In this document: one piece after another, positions 11,779-22,564 of the stretch
Numbering within the stretch: the first letter of the stretch is position 1
How the letters are laid out: every line of letters starts with the position of its first letter
Source: a virus
Direction: 5' to 3' (one strand)
DNA: 64,000 nucleotides
IMG/VR virus record: IMGVR_UViG_3300026534_000102
Coordinates: 1 to 64,000 of that record
Made by a program: the position numbers and the translations under genes
Notes under the pieces: model-generated
What the model was told of the DNA's origin: nothing
Seen by the model: the letters and a program-made list of their open reading frames with translations, nothing else
Database searches by the model: none

Positions 11779-12060
11779 CAGGTGCCCCATAACTTTCATT
11801 ATGGCCTGGACTATTCCTTCATCTAATTTATAAACATTAGACGGGAAGCGTATTATGGTAGAATTCTGCCACATATACATGTTTTAATTCATCTACCATC
11901 CTAGTGATCCTTTGCTTTAAACTTTAGGACTCTATGAGTCTCTAGACGGCTTACTCTTTTCAGATTCACCGTACGGCGTTGGCACCGGCCGAACCGCTGA
12001 GCGTTCACCGTATGAGCTTCCTTTTCACCTAATTATCACTAATTAGGGCGACCGTTTAAA
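11779..12060 (-). mobile_element. ORF-less group I intron (IA-like, 282 nt) in the tmRNA T-loop
   Basis: P1 CGAU/GUCG with U.G at the splice site; P2 CCTAATTA-GTGA-TAATTAGG; P3 GGAAGC/GCTTCC; P7 GAGACT/AGTC; P9 CCATAAT-GAAA-GTTATGG; terminal G. Confidence 0.9.
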
Positions 12061-12191
12061 ATCGAACCCGTGTCCGCAATGCTTCTTCTAAAGGGTTGAC
12101 GATGATAATTTATAAAACAAGAGGTCAATTAATGAAATACAAGGAAAAACGATGTAAGATTCTGTTGCTAGGTTCTTACTCACCCCAAAGC

Positions 12192-12275
12192 TTAGGCGAC
12201 CGCCAAGGCTTTATTATGTAGCAGCTCTACTCCTTCAAGAGCATCAGCTGCAAAGTCCATCATCGAGTTGTTGTC
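12192..12275 (-). other. tmRNA tag reading frame (A)DNNSMMDFAADALEGVELLHNKALAVA*
   Basis: resume codon inferred after TTTAATC; hydrophobic LAVA C-terminus. Confidence 0.75.
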
Positions 12276-12378
12276 GATTAAATTTTAAGTGTCCAATTTT
12301 AACGATGATCGGTACCGTCATCGCATCGAGTCTTTAGCGTCATTCACCACGTCGAAGCCGTTTCGCCCCCAGTTTATA

Positions 12379-13175: not shown

Positions 13176-13358
13176 TTATTTCCACCAAATTGTGTAAGCA
13201 AAATTTAAAGCTTGAATAATTCCTCCTAAAATACTAGCCCACAAAATTATTCTGTTTCTAATTTTTTGCTGAGTAATTTCATCGGTCGTATTAGCAATTT
13301 CTTGGCCCACAAGCCCATGAGTCAATTTAATTTTTGCTGTAGTAAGCTTTCCCATCAT
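13176..13358 (-). CDS. small protein with a C-terminal TM helix
   Basis: IILWASILGGIIQALNFAYTIWW. Confidence 0.6.
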   Translation of the reverse strand: MMGKLTTAKIKLTHGLVGQEIANTTDEITQQKIRNRIILWASILGGIIQALNFAYTIWWK

Positions 13359-14344
13359 AATCCCCCAAACACTTTTCTATTCAATAAATCTTTTTCACCA
13401 GTTAATTGTGGATCTTGTTCATAACCCAAAGACTTCAACTTACTTACTGTTTTAGAATAAGCACTTGTCCAACTGTCATCTTCAGACAGAGTAGCCACAA
13501 AAGAATATGTTAGAATCCCGTGCCAATTGTTATCAATAATCACACTCATAGAAGTCTGTGTAGATTTGCAACCACTTAATAGAACATGTCTCTGTGGTCT
13601 TCCATCCTCTCGTCTTCCTATCGAATTAGTAATTAAGTTTTTGGTAGTAAAAATAGCTTGCAAAAATTCCTGCGGCGGGACAATAAACCGCTCCATAGTA
13701 TTAAGGTCTTTACTTATTGTTCCACTATGACAAGAATCACTAATCATTGATAAGAAAACCCCCATAGGTAGTTTCTTAAAAATAGCTGCAATTTCATCAT
13801 CTACAATATAACCACCATCCCAATTAAAATCGTGCGGAATTAAAACTTCATCTAGTTTATCCACTTCATCCCCATTTATATCAGGAACTTGGCTACCATG
13901 TCCTGAAAAATGAAAAACAAGTTCGTCTCCTTTAACAGAAGCGGTAATCATTTTATCCAATTCAGTTAAAATATTGTTTTTAGTTGCTTTTTCATTTGTC
14001 AACAACACAATATTATTTTCATTAAATCCTCTATCTAACAGTACAGATTTTATTTGAAGAGCGTCAGCTACACATCCTTGAAGTCCCACTTTAGGATCAT
14101 TATACACATCTATTCCTACCAATAAAGCGTATTTTGTATCCCGTGTTTTTTCTACAGGAACTTCTGGTGTCGTAGAAGGTGTGTCTTCTAAACTTTCAGA
14201 ACTTTGATCAGGTTTAGAAACAACTATACTTATTTCATCTGGAGCTTCATCTACGTCTGAAGAAGGCTCTTCAGGTGCTTCTTCTATAATAGAGGACTTA
14301 AATAAATTTTGTATCCAATCTATAAAGGCTGCCCACCAAGTCAT
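13355..14344 (-). CDS. caspase-family peptidase C14 (metacaspase)
   Basis: YALLVGID, LQGCVADA, FHFSGHGSQ (catalytic His), ISDSCHSG (catalytic Cys), LSGC...QTS, Q.PQL. Confidence 0.92.
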   Translation of the reverse strand: MTWWAAFIDWIQNLFKSSIIEEAPEEPSSDVDEAPDEISIVVSKPDQSSESLEDTPSTTPEVPVEKTRDTKYALLVGIDVYNDPKVGLQGCVADALQIKSVLLDRGFNENNIVLLTNEKATKNNILTELDKMITASVKGDELVFHFSGHGSQVPDINGDEVDKLDEVLIPHDFNWDGGYIVDDEIAAIFKKLPMGVFLSMISDSCHSGTISKDLNTMERFIVPPQEFLQAIFTTKNLITNSIGRREDGRPQRHVLLSGCKSTQTSMSVIIDNNWHGILTYSFVATLSEDDSWTSAYSKTVSKLKSLGYEQDPQLTGEKDLLNRKVFGGL

Positions 14345-14433
14345 ATTTCTCTCCTTCTTAAATTTATTATGTCGCCAAAAACTATGCCCACAAATACCCA
14401 ATACCCAATATATTTTACATAAAATTAGACCAA

Positions 14434-15208: not shown

Positions 15209-18200
15209 TTATTCCCTAAGGTTCTTAAATAACAATGGAATTCCTTCATCAAATCCTGACGTTGTAGTCAATCCTTCATTATATGCAAAAGAGCCTGAAA
15301 TTACAGTAGGCATAATTTTACCATAAATAAGATGATTATAGTCAGGTTTCGACTCGTCATCTAGACAAACAACATAATGATGCTCACCGTAAGGTGTTTC
15401 TAACCAGAAATAACCAGTACCACTTGCAGACACAGCACTATCAACCAATGAGTGATCACTGCTTCTATATAAAGCAACCTCCCTTTGAACAGGCTGACCC
15501 TTTTCTTTTACATATCCTTCTATGAAGTACTTATTGTACTCTGGCCACTGATAGACATAAGCTGCACTATTAGTATAACTACCACCAGTCTTACGGGCTA
15601 CAAGATTTGTGTTGTCTTTGAACCAAAAGTAGTAGCTTCCTTCACCCCAAGCATTAGAACTACCTGTATATACTCTTCCTTGCCCTAGCATGTCTGATGT
15701 TATTATCATAGATCGACTGATGTCTATCGGCTCTTTGAGCTTTAGTGGATAAACACCAGATGCAGTAGTTGACAAGCCTACAAAATACTTCCTACTCATA
15801 AAATCTAAATCTGTATACATCTCTATGATTTCGCAGGCCCTGTGTTCCAAAGAATATGAAGAATAAGACCGATCAAACCTGATTCTATCACCATATAAAT
15901 CATAAATTCTATAAGTGCCTGCATCTGGTCTATAGCTTGTATAACTATGAGAATATGACGCTAAAAGCATGCTTTTAGAAAAAACAGGTTTATACTCTAC
16001 GGACATATCTACAGTGTTATTACTGTTACTTGTTGTCTCATATAAATGCTGAACGGTCCAATAGTTACTCTCATTTATACACTCTACTACATACCAACTA
16101 ATATATATATTGTCGCTTGAACTATTTCGTCTAAAAGCTATTTCTTCATCACTATTGAAGTGCCCAACCACGGCATTATATGCTGGACCATCACCGTAAG
16201 AATCTGAAAAAGCATAAAATAATAGAAACGCTCTATCCAGGTCTACTTTATCAATAGAGAGTGTTATAGTATTACCATTTGAATATCCGAAGCCGTGCTG
16301 AATTTTAATGTTATCATTAAACTCGACTATGTATACGGTTACATATCGTGAAGCGGCGGTGCCGAATCGTACTCTAAAACAATCAGGGTCTTCAAATCGA
16401 TAAATTGCCCTTGATCGACGAATGGCATCAGCATTTGAGGTTTGATTTGAATAGTTCATAAACGGGATACATTGTTTGATGTTTTGTCCTTTAGTCAAGT
16501 ATGCCTCAATAAGAGAAGAACTTGCATACTGTTTAAATACTTGTAACGATCTAATAAACCCTTTTGTTGGTACAGAAGGTCTTATACTATGTGCATCCTG
16601 ATAATGATACCCAGTCCAATTTATTAATCCAAAATTACCCTGACTACTTGTACCTGAACCTCCTTTGGCAACCTCAACTGTTTTTGTTTCATAATCCGAT
16701 ATGCGAATTGTACCAATAGCCTGTGACCATGTTGCTGAACTTGTGGAACATATCATAGTACTGGACTGTATATGATTGAAACAAGTTAGACCATCCTCCT
16801 CTAAAAAGTTGCTTACATATGTGAAAGTGTTAGTGGTATCTGTCTGAACGGAGTAAAAAGTATCAGTATGCCTTTTCTCATCTAAAAATTTAACGAATGT
16901 AACAGTAAAGTAAGCTGTGTAAGTAGCATAACCGCGAAAACAATCAAATCTAAAATCCAACCATAATCCAGCGCGCCATGCGGAAGCATCCATTCTTGTA
17001 GAAGAATAATTAGTAGCATAGGATGCTATGGAAAATGAATTATGACTTGACCATATGTAGTCATCGTTGTAAAAACTAAGACGAGTAGAAGAAGATGAAC
17101 TATTAGCATGTCGAGTAACAAAGTTATCTTTAAGATCCTCTACCACGAAAATAGATGTATCAACCTCATAGCTTGTACCAGCTTTATAAAACTCTACATG
17201 AGAAGTGTCTGTAAATCTAACCCTCACCATGCTATAACTCGGCCGCGCATCCCCCGATGTAAATGTTTTGGATAAAATGAAGCATTTATTAACATCAGAG
17301 ACTTCTTCTATCGGCAATGTAGTAGTTGTTTGGCCTGATACATACGTATTCTTATGCTGTACCTTGACTTGATTTGGCCAAAATTCTACTACACTTATAT
17401 CAACTCGAAGCTGCCCAGCTGTACTCCACCTCTTAACACAAACTATACCAGGAGAAACCAAATAAACATTAGCCATTTGATCTCTTAGGTTATTACCCGA
17501 AGTACTACTAGTTGATGCGAATACAGCACAATTTTCCCAATTTTGTCCTTTAGATAACTTACGGCACGCAAAATTCCTTTCGCCACTTATACGGAAATTT
17601 TCAACGGATTTGACAAACGATTTCCCAGGACCATTACCTTCTGGTATAGGATTAGAATTAGATCCAATATCTATTTGTATACCCGCCCAATCAACTACTA
17701 TTAAATATGATGGGTATGCAGTGTAACCACTACTACTTCTTTCTAAGAAAATACCGTCATCATTATTTAATTTAGCAGATACAAACATCTGATCTATAGC
17801 GCTGGTAGACGAAGTATTAACACGACACACTCCTTGCGCCATAGCACATACTATAGTAGAAGTATCTGTATTAACTGCAAACGGGACTCTATTAGAATCA
17901 TTTCCGTAAGTAAGTGTGTTAGAAGTAGATGTTGAATCAACACTAACTAGTTGATGAATAAACGGTGTATAGATCTTTTCTTTATCAAGAAATTCGACCA
18001 CTTGATATGCCCAGTAGATAGTATAGGATGCGTATCCACGATCACATCTTATTGATCCGTCAGAATACAAAAATATCCTTGCCATTCCAGCATCTGGTCT
18101 GGTGGCTGAGTAGTTAGTTGCACAACTGCCTATAATAAAAGTTCGCAAAGGATCGACGCAGTGCCTATCGGGATGCACAATAGTTGTCTCGCCTGTACCA

Positions 18201-18754
18201 CTGTAACTATGAGAATGATGCGTAACTCTAAAATTATTTTTTAAATCCTCAAATAAATACCAATGTCCTTGACAAGAAGCACCTGCATCATTTCTGTAAA
18301 AATCAATAGTTGATTCATTAACAACACGGCCCCTAACACAATGGTATCTAAAGTTTTGACTAGTTGAAGAACTCCACCAGAAATGAGTCATTGCAGCCCG
18401 ATCCGTACCACTTAAAGTTGTTCCTAGTGTTATTGCATCAGTGATCTGATCATTTAAATCAAAGGATCCTTGTTGAACTCTTACCTCTTCGGGATTAAAT
18501 TCTACAATATAACATCTAATAGTTAATGCATTACTTCGTTGTTTAATACGTTTGAAAACAATATTGGCTGTACTTTCAAAATAGATATCAAGCATATGAG
18601 AGTCTTGATAGTCACTTCCTCCATGAGCAGTCATGAATGGTATACAATTACTCAAATCAGGGGTACCACTTAAAGTAACAGAGCCGCTTAAAGAAGTGGC
18701 ACCTAAAGTGTATTCTACAAATTGTACTGATTCTACCCAACTAGATACAGCCAT
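15209..18754 (-). CDS. large repetitive beta-rich virion/tail-associated protein
   Basis: three large internal repeats (V.SV/L...KGQN...C.PF...VEF...VQ.G); Ser/Thr/Tyr-rich. Confidence 0.65.
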   Translation of the reverse strand: MAVSSWVESVQFVEYTLGATSLSGSVTLSGTPDLSNCIPFMTAHGGSDYQDSHMLDIYFESTANIVFKRIKQRSNALTIRCYIVEFNPEEVRVQQGSFDLNDQITDAITLGTTLSGTDRAAMTHFWWSSSTSQNFRYHCVRGRVVNESTIDFYRNDAGASCQGHWYLFEDLKNNFRVTHHSHSYSGTGETTIVHPDRHCVDPLRTFIIGSCATNYSATRPDAGMARIFLYSDGSIRCDRGYASYTIYWAYQVVEFLDKEKIYTPFIHQLVSVDSTSTSNTLTYGNDSNRVPFAVNTDTSTIVCAMAQGVCRVNTSSTSAIDQMFVSAKLNNDDGIFLERSSSGYTAYPSYLIVVDWAGIQIDIGSNSNPIPEGNGPGKSFVKSVENFRISGERNFACRKLSKGQNWENCAVFASTSSTSGNNLRDQMANVYLVSPGIVCVKRWSTAGQLRVDISVVEFWPNQVKVQHKNTYVSGQTTTTLPIEEVSDVNKCFILSKTFTSGDARPSYSMVRVRFTDTSHVEFYKAGTSYEVDTSIFVVEDLKDNFVTRHANSSSSSTRLSFYNDDYIWSSHNSFSIASYATNYSSTRMDASAWRAGLWLDFRFDCFRGYATYTAYFTVTFVKFLDEKRHTDTFYSVQTDTTNTFTYVSNFLEEDGLTCFNHIQSSTMICSTSSATWSQAIGTIRISDYETKTVEVAKGGSGTSSQGNFGLINWTGYHYQDAHSIRPSVPTKGFIRSLQVFKQYASSSLIEAYLTKGQNIKQCIPFMNYSNQTSNADAIRRSRAIYRFEDPDCFRVRFGTAASRYVTVYIVEFNDNIKIQHGFGYSNGNTITLSIDKVDLDRAFLLFYAFSDSYGDGPAYNAVVGHFNSDEEIAFRRNSSSDNIYISWYVVECINESNYWTVQHLYETTSNSNNTVDMSVEYKPVFSKSMLLASYSHSYTSYRPDAGTYRIYDLYGDRIRFDRSYSSYSLEHRACEIIEMYTDLDFMSRKYFVGLSTTASGVYPLKLKEPIDISRSMIITSDMLGQGRVYTGSSNAWGEGSYYFWFKDNTNLVARKTGGSYTNSAAYVYQWPEYNKYFIEGYVKEKGQPVQREVALYRSSDHSLVDSAVSASGTGYFWLETPYGEHHYVVCLDDESKPDYNHLIYGKIMPTVISGSFAYNEGLTTTSGFDEGIPLLFKNLRE

Positions 18755-18778
18755 AAAAGTTCCTTAAAGTTTATTTTG

Positions 18779-18811
18779 GTTTCAATCCACGCACCCCCTG
18801 CGGGGTGCGAC
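18779..18811 (-). CRISPR. solitary type I-C-like CRISPR repeat (no array and no cas genes in the window)
   Basis: GTCGCACCCCGCAGGGGGTGCGTGGATTGAAAC: GTCGC start, hairpin CGCACCCC/GGGGTGCG, 3' TGGATTGAAAC. Confidence 0.88.
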
Positions 18812-18826
18812 CCACTCGGCATCGAT

Positions 18827-18902
18827 TGGAGCCCCCGACAGGAATCGAACCCGTGACATCCTCATTACAAGTGAGGTGCTCTTCCAGCTGAGCTACGGAG
18901 GC
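18827..18902 (-). tRNA. tRNA-Thr(TGT)
   Basis: CCTCA-CTTGTAA-TGAGG; CCA encoded. Confidence 0.93.
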
Positions 18903-18981
18903 TTTTACTAATAAACTGGTTAGATAATTGGTGGGCTCTTCCCAATAACCATATTTAATTTTTTTTTGTGCCTAATCTTTA

Positions 18982-19460
18982 TTAGACACAAACCCCTCTG
19001 CCCCAAAGTTTAAACTCTTCAAATGTAAACATTAATACATCTTTATATAAGATTCCTTCACATCTAGATTTTAACCATGCTTTTGCACCGTGTTTATAAC
19101 CCTCCCCTTCAACTATAAGAATAACAATCCTTTCTTCAAACGCTAATGCGGTCTCAAAAAAATAAGGTAATTTTTCATCAACTGATCCTGCCACATTTTG
19201 AAAACGACATTCTATTCTAATATCTTTTTTACCATCTAGAGTTAAAACGAATTCTCCTCTACCATTACCTCCATATATTGTAATGTAAGGAACATTTTTT
19301 AATAGTAGTCCTTTGATTAATAACGGAAACTGTATACGATCGTGCACCCAATCAGAAAACATAATTGAGGTAATACCATGCTCCACAAAAAAAAGTCTCA
19401 ACCTTGTCTTCAAGCATTTTGCCTGCTTTGTTTTGCTAACTGTCCTTGATTCATTTCCAT
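18982..19460 (-). pseudogene. PD-(D/E)XK endonuclease with two apparent single-base insertions near the 5' end
   Basis: IEC.FQ..AGSVDEKLPY motif; the N-terminus is restored by deleting one base in each of two homopolymers. Confidence 0.65.
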
Positions 19461-19487
19461 TAATCTTCCCTTTTTTAAAAAATTAAA

Positions 19488-20288
19488 TTAATTATACACT
19501 ACTAACACTTCCTCTACCTTTCCTCTGCCGCTTGCCTTCGCACTTATAAATCTGTTTATAAACTTTCTATGACTACAATCACCATTTTTATACAATTCTT
19601 CAGTAATCTGAGGAATCCAATGATTTGATATTAATACCTTACATTCACTTGCCTCAGCACAAGCTACTAATTTCTTTTGGTGGTCAAAAGTAAATATTTT
19701 ATCAACATAACTGGTAAAATAAGAACTTGCACCTAAAGGTATATAAGGTGGATCACAATAAAAAACATCACCTTTCTGTTCACGATTAAATGTTTCTTCA
19801 AAATCACAACAAAGGAACTCAAACTTTTTTGCTTTCTTATGGAAAACCAACATCTCTTTATCTGGAAAGTAGACTGATTTGTATTTTCCAAAAGGCACAT
19901 TAAATTTACCGCTTAAATTATATCTACACAACCCATTAAAAGCATGACGATTTAAATAAAGAAATAAAGCAGCACGTTCTGTATTAAATGTTAATGAGTT
20001 GAATGTATCACGCCTACTGTAATAAACAGATTTATTATTTCCGTCTATGAAAAATTTTTGACAATAAGCAATAAAATCTGTTCCATTATTTTTTATATTC
20101 TCAAATAAATTAATTAAATCTTGGTTACAATCCGCCAATAAATAACTATCAGCATCAATATTTAATGACATTACCCCCGAACCCACAAATGGTTCAACAA
20201 ACCGTACTATTTTTTTTGGGAGTACTTCTTTGATAAAATCAATACTTTGTGTTTTACCACCAGCCCATTTTAAAAAAGACTTATTCAT
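19488..20288 (-). CDS. dam: Dam-family DNA adenine methyltransferase
   Basis: FLKWAGGK, FVEPFVGSG, FNGLCRYN.SG.FNVPFG.Y, YCDPPY. Confidence 0.95.
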   Translation of the reverse strand: MNKSFLKWAGGKTQSIDFIKEVLPKKIVRFVEPFVGSGVMSLNIDADSYLLADCNQDLINLFENIKNNGTDFIAYCQKFFIDGNNKSVYYSRRDTFNSLTFNTERAALFLYLNRHAFNGLCRYNLSGKFNVPFGKYKSVYFPDKEMLVFHKKAKKFEFLCCDFEETFNREQKGDVFYCDPPYIPLGASSYFTSYVDKIFTFDHQKKLVACAEASECKVLISNHWIPQITEELYKNGDCSHRKFINRFISAKASGRGKVEEVLVVYN

Positions 20289-21426: not shown

Positions 21427-21438
21427 TTGTGTATTTTT

Positions 21439-21495
21439 TGCAGGGGAAAGTTACGCCGCTTTCCCCTGCACGGCCAATAGCGGCGTCTACTGGCC
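21439..21495 (-). ncRNA. unassigned two-hairpin RNA with complementary (kissing) loops
   Basis: GGCCAGTAG-ACGCCG-CTATTGGCC G TGCAGGGGAAAG-CGGCGTAA-CTTTCCCCTGCA. Confidence 0.7.
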
Positions 21496-21504
21496 TAATA
21501 TTTG

Positions 21505-22494: not shown

Positions 22495-22564
22495 TTGCGG
22501 AGGTGGGAGTCGAACCCACGAAGGCAGGCGTATGAGACCTGCTTGAATGCCCATTCTCTCCGCT
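22495..22564 (-). tRNA. tRNA with CAT anticodon (Met/fMet-like, 1:72 mismatch, short D-arm)
   Basis: CAGGT-CTCATAC-GCCTG; GTGGG-TTCGACT-CCCAC. Confidence 0.78.

Follow-up and report, generated by a model that had tools for sequence, protein, structure and literature searches.

A solitary type I-C CRISPR repeat flanked by a tRNA gene and a conserved phage gene: a recent insertion and candidate RNA decoy

The virus record IMGVR_UViG_3300026534_000102 is 115,311 bp in full, with a completeness of about 44% according to CheckV, and its first 64,000 nucleotides (nt) make up the stretch of DNA analyzed here, referred to as the window. At 18755-18902 on the minus strand, the window carries a tRNA-Thr gene, a short linker, a single repeat of the kind found in CRISPR arrays (short palindromic repeats, clustered and regularly interspaced), and the ribosome-binding site (RBS) of a gene for a protein of 1181 amino acids (aa). 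The repeat lies 15 nt 3' of the tRNA and 24 nt 5' of the ATG, and the layout given in an initial annotation of this DNA (tRNA-Thr, 15 nt, a 33-nt repeat, 24 nt with AAGGA, ATG) was reproduced at every coordinate (Table 1). The repeat is intergenic, between tRNA-Thr and the 1181-aa open reading frame (ORF), with no ORF of at least 50 aa overlapping it, and all of the neighboring genes and tRNAs lie on its strand. In a control for chance, none of 100 shuffles matched the repeat at three or fewer mismatches.

Table 1. Parts of the element and of the adjoining genes, in coordinates of the window.
Feature	Coordinates	Strand	Basis or comment
tRNA-Thr(tgt), encoded CCA end	18827-18902	-	ARAGORN; Rfam tRNA 66.3 bits
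48-nt lineage-specific insertion (linker plus repeat)	18779-18826	-	clean gap against three relatives; vent contigs
15-nt GC-rich linker ATCGATGCCGAGTGG, 60% GC	18812-18826	-	missing from all relatives
Complete 33-nt type I-C CRISPR repeat GTCGCACCCCGCAGGGGGTGCGTGGATTGAAAC, CRISPR RNA sense	18779-18811	-	identity to cas-flanked array
GU overhang of repeat	18810-18811	-	
8-bp stem of repeat	18802-18809 paired with 18790-18797	-	
GCAG loop of repeat	18798-18801	-	
11-nt tail (handle) UGGAUUGAAAC of repeat	18779-18789	-	
Predicted Cas5c cut	between 18790 and 18789	-	determinants in PMC8524198
Ancestral 5' untranslated region of 1181-aa gene, 24 nt	18755-18778	-	homologous to CCA-to-ATG stretch (25-27 nt) in L073-L075
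Shine-Dalgarno AAGGA	18761-18765	-	
ATG of 1181-aa ORF	18752-18754	-	
1181-aa ORF	15209-18754	-	virus-only protein

Genomes were scanned, one per species, with a query consisting of the stem and tail of the repeat with the loop left free. The scan returned 30 loci, most of them with the spacing of arrays, from Bacteroidales/Prevotella, Chloroflexi, Acidobacteria, Clostridia, Verrucomicrobia and other groups, and the exact repeat was found in one genome only, a Bacteroidales metagenome-assembled genome (MAG) designated G001. Its locus L028 contains 39 copies identical to the phage repeat at 33 of 33 positions, GCAG loop included; the whole genome holds 40 copies, one with a single mismatch. The L028 array follows genes for Cas8c/Csd1, Cas7/Csd2, Cas4 and Cas1c, recognized by NCBIfam models, together with an ORF of the size of cas2 and a leader; followed in the direction of the cas genes, the repeats of the array read GTCGC...GAAAC. 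The phage copy therefore has CRISPR RNA (crRNA) sense on the strand of the neighboring genes and tRNAs. Among viral contigs, a search for repeats with the exact stem matched only the phage's own record.

The nuclease Cas5c reads the base of the stem and the UGG/11-nt tail, while the loop and the 5' overhang are irrelevant to it (PMC8524198). Every one of these features is intact in the phage copy: the 2-nt 5' overhang, the stem-loop, the UGG directly past the cut site, and the 11-nt tail. Identity to a cas-flanked I-C array and the presence of every published Cas5c determinant identify the phage unit, by its sequence, as a genuine type I-C CRISPR repeat, much as had been proposed before any database was searched; real I-C repeats do match it. 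The Rfam model CRISPR-DR9 matches exactly 18779-18811(-), at 19.5 bits and so below its gathering score of 45, and no other CRISPR-DR match from Rfam occurs in 10-24 kb. The hairpin of 8 bp with a 4-nt loop dominates the predicted local fold, in which the RBS and the 5' untranslated region (UTR) are unpaired; the z-score of the fold, -1.09, is not significant. Pairing between linker and handle is present in the minimum free energy fold and missing from the centroid.

Comparison with relatives shows how the repeat came to its present position. The 1181-aa protein has about 50 homologs of about 1190 aa, encoded on contigs of up to 318 kb. Searches with the protein alone returned no relatives from viral contigs or GenBank phages; an alignment of 20 homologs, used as the query, returned 29 related loci. 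The nearest, L073, L074 and L075, show 65, 55 and 54% protein identity to the 1181-aa protein, and each has a nearly identical tRNA-Thr(tgt) directly upstream of the homologous gene, with 25, 27 and 26 nt, respectively, from CCA to ATG. Aligned with the phage, all three have a clean gap opposite 18779-18826, and the 24 nt past the repeat align to their short UTR. Two further relatives, contigs from two other hydrothermal-vent studies that are about 81-85% identical over the first 390 nt of the gene, connect 18754 with 18826 through just 20 other letters, so that the tRNA is followed by a short UTR with AAGGAG and the ATG. All five relatives keep tRNA-Thr directly before the gene, the distance from CCA to ATG being 21-27 nt, and none of them has the repeat; by these alignments, therefore, the element is a recent 48-nt insertion specific to this phage lineage.

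More distant relatives, at 44% identity or less, have no tRNA at this position, and their gene is coupled to an upstream coding sequence. No I-C-type handle with a hairpin was found in any relative locus, and the 35 nt past the repeat are poorly conserved across all known relatives. A linkage of tRNA and repeat maintained among related phages, raised in the initial annotation, is contradicted by the five relatives that have the tRNA and the gene without the repeat. Absence from close relatives had been named there as grounds for refutation; because these relatives are only about 54-85% identical, we read their lack of the repeat as a recent gain in the phage and not as a refutation. By the same comparison, the linkage to the tRNA is inherited from the landing site, and no function is shown for it. 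The capture event is clearly visible, with a before and an after, and this is the most useful feature of the element.

The insert has a GC content of 65% in a phage genome of 34% GC. It ends exactly at the 3' end of the repeat, and CCA/CA is repeated at both junctions, which leaves its boundaries ambiguous by 2-3 nt. Because it consists of one exact repeat after 15 GC-rich nt and stops at the repeat's 3' end, the insert looks like a piece of an array, and the linker probably represents the 3' tail of whichever spacer stood before the captured repeat there. With the insert-free relatives as the picture before the event and a probable spacer tail plus one repeat as the picture after it, a host array is indicated as the source. 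As to the donor spacer, the linker is not an end of any of the 272 spacers from arrays of this repeat family, and its matches in genome G001 are not above control level. One X4 spacer shares ATCGATG with the linker, a match treated as a coincidence.

Only a single copy of the repeat occurs, in the window as in the whole 115,311-bp record; the closest degenerate copy that the record contains matches at 18 of 33 positions (55%). Six-frame searches of the record found no match to Cas5d or Cas1, and none of its other GC-rich islands resembles a second CRISPR repeat. The earlier statement that neither a second repeat nor cas genes accompany the element holds over the whole record. An array, taken as at least two repeats with spacers, is not present, the single copy being that of a record about 44% complete; nor is a mini-array; the position one spacer length upstream falls within the tRNA. 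Viral solitary repeat units and RNA anti-CRISPRs (Racrs) were described by Camara-Wilpert et al. 2023 (PMC10651486), in which the first catalog of solitary repeat units is credited to Faure et al. 2019. The SRUFinder definition (PMC10651486) comprises a high-scoring match to a known repeat, an intergenic position, and the absence both of cas genes and of partial repeats above 70% identity within the 100-bp flanks. No such partial repeat lies in the flanks here, and by its sequence the element has every property of a viral solitary repeat unit.

The probable source run, a hydrothermal vent metagenome, has also been assembled independently in Logan; at about 12x depth, that assembly covers 18000-19600 and shows 0 differences. 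The agreement rules out an assembler artifact, while a read-level artifact is not ruled out by it, as the same reads lie under both assemblies; a chimeric assembly, which had been named as a concern, is unlikely because phage sequence flanks the insert on each side and a read is longer than the insert. One other vent run contains the repeat joined to a second copy across 34 nt, and several of its contigs match 18779-18811 but diverge beyond it. Vent communities therefore harbor arrays of this repeat family.

We propose that the element acts as a Racr-like RNA decoy against type I-C immunity, an analysis that we would be about equally ready to see upheld or overturned. In this account, a 48-nt piece of an array, comprising the last 15 nt of a spacer and one whole repeat, recently entered this phage lineage at the precise point where the CCA end of tRNA-Thr meets the short 5' UTR of a conserved, putative virion gene. 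The mRNA of the 1181-aa gene would then include the repeat, in crRNA sense, along with the tRNA. As only 24 nt separate the repeat from the ATG, every mRNA of the gene would be transcribed through the repeat, and the 21-27 nt between tRNA and ATG in the relatives leave no room for a promoter, so that tRNA and gene probably share a transcript. Racrs are transcribed from a promoter within 250 bp or as part of an operon; here, sigma-70-like sites upstream are no commoner than in shuffles, and no terminator was found. In a host with a matching I-C system, Cas5c would recognize the base of the hairpin and the UGG/11-nt tail and cut after G18790. One product would be a short hairpin, the trailer of the tRNA. 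The other would be an RNA led by the crRNA 5' handle, followed by the UTR and phage mRNA, with the UTR in the position of a spacer.

Cas5c and Cas7 would be expected to nucleate on this handle, with Cas7 coating the rest of the RNA. Assembly of the type I-C Cascade is nucleated by Cas5c and Cas7.7, which clamp the 5' handle, and the contacts of Cas7 with the backbone are non-specific (PMC7684278). Because the handle nucleates assembly and Cas7 binds without sequence preference, the RNA should take up both proteins; it would tie them up in unproductive complexes and compete with real crRNAs, effects demonstrated for RacrIF1 and RacrIC1, to whatever benefit the phage may derive from it. Lone phage repeats as RNA anti-CRISPRs, those of type I-C included, have already been validated experimentally, and the element itself is no new kind. 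RacrIC1, a lone I-C repeat co-transcribed with acrIC5, inhibits I-C interference; even a non-targeting crRNA competes; and in the case of RacrIF1, Cas proteins are sequestered in aberrant complexes (PMC10651486).

The element resembles RacrIC1 and other solitary repeat units in being one lone repeat, intergenic and in sense orientation, with no cas genes and no second repeat. Like RacrIC1, it is of type I-C, with hairpin and handle intact, and the layout suggests co-transcription with a neighboring gene, as RacrIC1 is co-transcribed with acrIC5. Unlike RacrIC1, which lies at the 3' end of an anti-CRISPR (acr) operon, it stands 5' of a large gene of probable virion type, 24 nt from the ATG; it lies directly behind a tRNA with no acr gene nearby, and it is known here from sequence alone. 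A further difference is that the insertion event, a repeat with a 15-nt probable spacer tail, is visible. Cas5c cleavage would place the crRNA handle on the 5' end of the mRNA, right over the RBS, and this placement could show whether type I-C decoys need a particular downstream RNA.

Three further observations are counted in support of the decoy. The foreign block of high GC content contains exactly one intact repeat and stops where the repeat stops, and random capture of host DNA amounting to exactly one intact repeat is unlikely. Lone I-C repeats a short distance before an RBS or ATG recur in other viral contigs, and vent metagenomes contain arrays of the family to which the repeat belongs. 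Several points weigh on the other side. The argument draws on sequence and precedent and presupposes a host with a matching I-C system. The element occurs in one lineage only, where perfect identity may just mean that it is young, and so there is no conservation signal for selection. Racrs often share a locus with acr genes, a feature that supports but does not define them, and no recognizable anti-CRISPR gene lies nearby. A decoy acting on Cascade assembly does little to complexes that were already loaded when a lytic infection begins; late expression of the downstream gene, if such is its timing, may delay the peak of the RNA; and the phage could pay a price for a coat of Cas5c and Cas7 on the RBS of a conserved gene. 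That the element is an RNA anti-CRISPR, as first suggested, is nevertheless reasonable in view of its solitary state, its crRNA sense, its Cas5c determinants and the RacrIC1 precedent; the part of that suggestion that made the tRNA a component of the device did not hold up.

Recombination with a host array, to which the initial annotation gave a place among its alternatives, stays a serious rival. The insert may be a neutral or nearly neutral scar, or an escape scar, left when a fragment copied from a host array entered a tolerant spot of the tRNA region by illegitimate, microhomology-mediated or spacer-protospacer recombination, too young to have decayed and with no role. Varble et al. reportedly described phage-array recombination through spacer homology in 2019, experimentally and in staphylococci, and are said to have described, in 2019 and 2021, both such recombination and prophage integration into CRISPR repeats. 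Events of this kind would offer a route by which a spacer piece and a repeat could enter a phage genome. Unlike in those cases, no matching spacer, integrase or array-side product was observed here, and they would explain origin at most, not function. Restriction to one lineage, with five relatives lacking the insert, is as a scar would have it, and so is the 33/33 identity, which fits a very recent event; CCA/CA at both junctions fits microhomology-mediated joining, the same tRNA region carries other lineage-specific insertions (a methylase/nuclease cassette and a 77-nt double hairpin), and an acr gene is missing from the vicinity.

What a scar does not explain is the exactness of the insert, since arrays are a tiny share of a host genome and an exact, intact repeat in sense orientation is unexpected without selection or a CRISPR-specific mechanism. 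The insert also lies within what should be the sole transcript of a conserved gene, and at a depth of about 12x it has consensus frequency. An intact expressed repeat would moreover be expected to bind Cas5c whether selected or not, given that a non-targeting crRNA competes (PMC10651486). On balance, we regard a scar as somewhat unlikely, though a possibility to be taken in earnest.

A bolder form of the decoy proposal was considered, in which lone repeats in tRNA operons and 5' UTRs would represent a distinct design that recurs among large phages, as opposed to a product of accidental insertion. A highly transcribed and processed region of RNA would release Cas-binding RNAs, and in the present case a handle-capped decoy mRNA would soak up Cas5c and Cas7 and also couple the translation or stability of the gene to the CRISPR state of the host. 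If this were true, the 15-nt spacer tail would document the birth of a decoy by direct capture from host arrays. In a first set of viral contigs, none of 28 lone I-C units was near a tRNA. In a second set there were 81 lone I-C units, 61 of them with a stable hairpin, and one, in L134, was within 300 nt of a tRNA; few of the flanks examined contain any tRNA. This unit (L134:1824-2010), in a viral contig of 49.8 kb, is a lone I-C repeat that shares its strand with tRNA-Met and lies 80 nt upstream of it. Association of repeat and tRNA is rare in viral contigs at large, and the recurrent design is improbable. The adjacency comes from the ancestral junction of tRNA and gene and not from a built tRNA-repeat module, and only one of about 80 other lone repeats is near a tRNA.

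Placement shortly before a gene is a different matter. Lone I-C repeats 10-26 nt before an RBS or ATG recur at L033:2183-2215, L038:463-495, L040:11367-11399 and L042:3972-4004. The genes that follow these four are unrelated: two encode unknown proteins, of 291 and 199 aa, and the others a phage cement protein and a dUTPase. A DUF3846 protein also figures among the products encoded downstream of lone repeats. The orientation of other lone repeats relative to flanking ORFs could not be used, the calls being swamped by spurious antisense ORFs in GC-rich contigs. Other viral contigs (L035, L046, L051, L053-L055, L057, L058 and L060) contain a mini-array in which a degenerate repeat is followed by a 34-nt spacer and then by a full repeat, and the 34-nt spacer is nearly identical among them. 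The present element shares the I-C repeat family of these mini-arrays and differs in having no second repeat, even a degenerate one, and so no defined guide.

Such placement is one reason to consider that the repeat works in cis, as a processing or regulatory element. Whether or not Cas5c acts on it, the hairpin would mark where the tRNA gives way to the mRNA and would set the 5' end of the mRNA, stabilize it, through a 5'-OH or a protein cap, or, with Cas5c/Cas7 occupying the RBS, tie translation of the gene to the CRISPR state of the host. With the predicted cut, 13 nt would separate the handle from the Shine-Dalgarno site and 24 nt would separate it from the ATG, within the stretch of about 34 nt that Cas7 covers on a crRNA (PMC7684278), and the RBS is otherwise free of predicted pairing. 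Against this, the relatives manage with 21-27 nt between tRNA and ATG, so the repeat is not needed for processing; the unrelatedness of the genes downstream of other lone repeats speaks against a shared regulatory role; and there is no obvious gain in tying a structural gene to the CRISPR status of the host. We consider a role in cis very unlikely.

Marginally more doubtful is a form of self mimicry, in which the insert either replaced the flank on the protospacer-adjacent motif (PAM) side of a protospacer at the start of the gene, so that Cascade would take it for array-like self, as an escape scar, or supplies a handle by which phage sequence becomes a guide against insert-free sibling phages. 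Phage sequence does begin where a spacer would, and the 3 nt preceding it are now AAC, not the I-C PAM, which is given as TTC in PMC8406640. The insert-free relatives, however, have CCA, the end of the tRNA, at the PAM position and not TTC, which makes them poor targets, and the 35 nt that would serve as the guide are the poorly conserved ones noted above. None of the 272 spacers matches the region, no downstream repeat would set the 3' end of a guide, and a point mutation would be a far simpler means of escape. A guide against siblings was also considered as the principal explanation of the element and was rejected on account of the CCA flank and the divergence of the sequence.

Regulators of the Cracr type are phage-encoded RNAs, derived from repeats, that engage type I Cas proteins of the host, as the present element may; I-C examples have been reported, and a Cracr needs at least 9 PAM-proximal matches between its spacer part and a cas or creT promoter, usually with flanking repeat remnants (10.1101/2024.10.29.618823). 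Here, unlike in a Cracr, the spacer position holds just the ancestral UTR, and no such target was found in G001, the one candidate genome tested, where matches of TTC plus a 10-nt seed number 6, against 10 in a reversed control, with none near the cas operon. That the element is such a Cas-repressing, crRNA-like regulator (a Cracr or crlRNA mimic), or the att-like site for integration into an array that had been suggested earlier, is highly improbable: both classes exist for type I, Cracrs as described (10.1101/2024.10.29.618823) and integration into repeats as suggested in PMC10651486, but there is no flanking degenerate repeat, the phage is tRNA-rich and apparently large, and neither a tyrosine integrase (PF00589) nor a serine recombinase (PF00239) has a match in the 115-kb record, itself about 44% complete.

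With its family shared across phyla, the repeat does not name the host by its identity. A strong Shine-Dalgarno 5-mer at -20 to -4 precedes 62% of phage ORFs of at least 150 aa, compared with 4% of random 17-mers; the corresponding usage is 8% in loci of the G001 MAG and 0-14% across the Bacteroidales/Prevotella loci tested. Bacteroidota make little use of Shine-Dalgarno sites, and the usage seen in the phage sequence argues against a Bacteroidota host. Spacers targeting the phage numbered 0 of the 272 from arrays of this repeat family, beyond chance-level matches of 13-20 nt. Nothing was found in favor of Desulfobacterota, the host guessed at the outset, and the sole exact match to the repeat is in a Bacteroidales MAG, which Shine-Dalgarno usage also disfavors.

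The 1181-aa protein belongs to a virus-only family and consists of three internal repeats of about 350 aa and a small C-terminal beta domain. Each internal repeat carries the motifs LSKGQ..NC.PF, VVEF..V.VQ and one of GHWFLFEDL type. No sequence match was found in Pfam, PHROG or the PDB. An AlphaFold model (pLDDT 86, pTM 0.79) is all-beta with three repeated modules. Its best viral fold matches are a baseplate wedge initiator, a tail fiber and DUF7483, and its best PDB fold matches are Ig-like adhesin arrays, all with low TM-scores. A major-tail-like fn3 protein is encoded downstream. From the fold matches and this neighbor, the 1181-aa protein is likely, though with weak support, to be a virion protein of tail or baseplate type.

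Besides this virion-type protein, the genes near the repeat encode a Dam methylase and a PD-(D/E)XK nuclease unlike Cas4, and none of the three is a recognizable anti-CRISPR. The Dam-family adenine methylase (266 aa) and the nuclease (143 aa, PF20472) occupy 18982-20288 (-), between tRNA-Ser(gct) and tRNA-Thr, where relatives hold tRNA-Phe or short gaps, and the pair looks like an inserted cassette of restriction-modification or anti-restriction type. The nuclease was considered as a possible Cas4 and rejected, as it has no Cys cluster and no match to a Cas4 model. At 21427-21503 (-), between tRNA-Glu and tRNA-Val, lies a GC-rich double hairpin of 77 nt, which has no Rfam match and is not CRISPR-repeat-like; the same tRNAs are 3 nt apart in L075, and by this comparison the double hairpin is a second lineage-specific, GC-rich insertion in the tRNA array. 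Judged by these sequences, the tRNA region is clearly plastic in this phage. An Rfam match to transfer-messenger RNA at 12058-12362 (-) scores 43.5 bits against a gathering score of 47, with a match to a 3' fragment at 22503-22520. Three genes downstream of the 1181-aa gene, at 13355-14401 (-), a 348-aa protein with a caspase domain is encoded (Peptidase_C14, E 4e-23).

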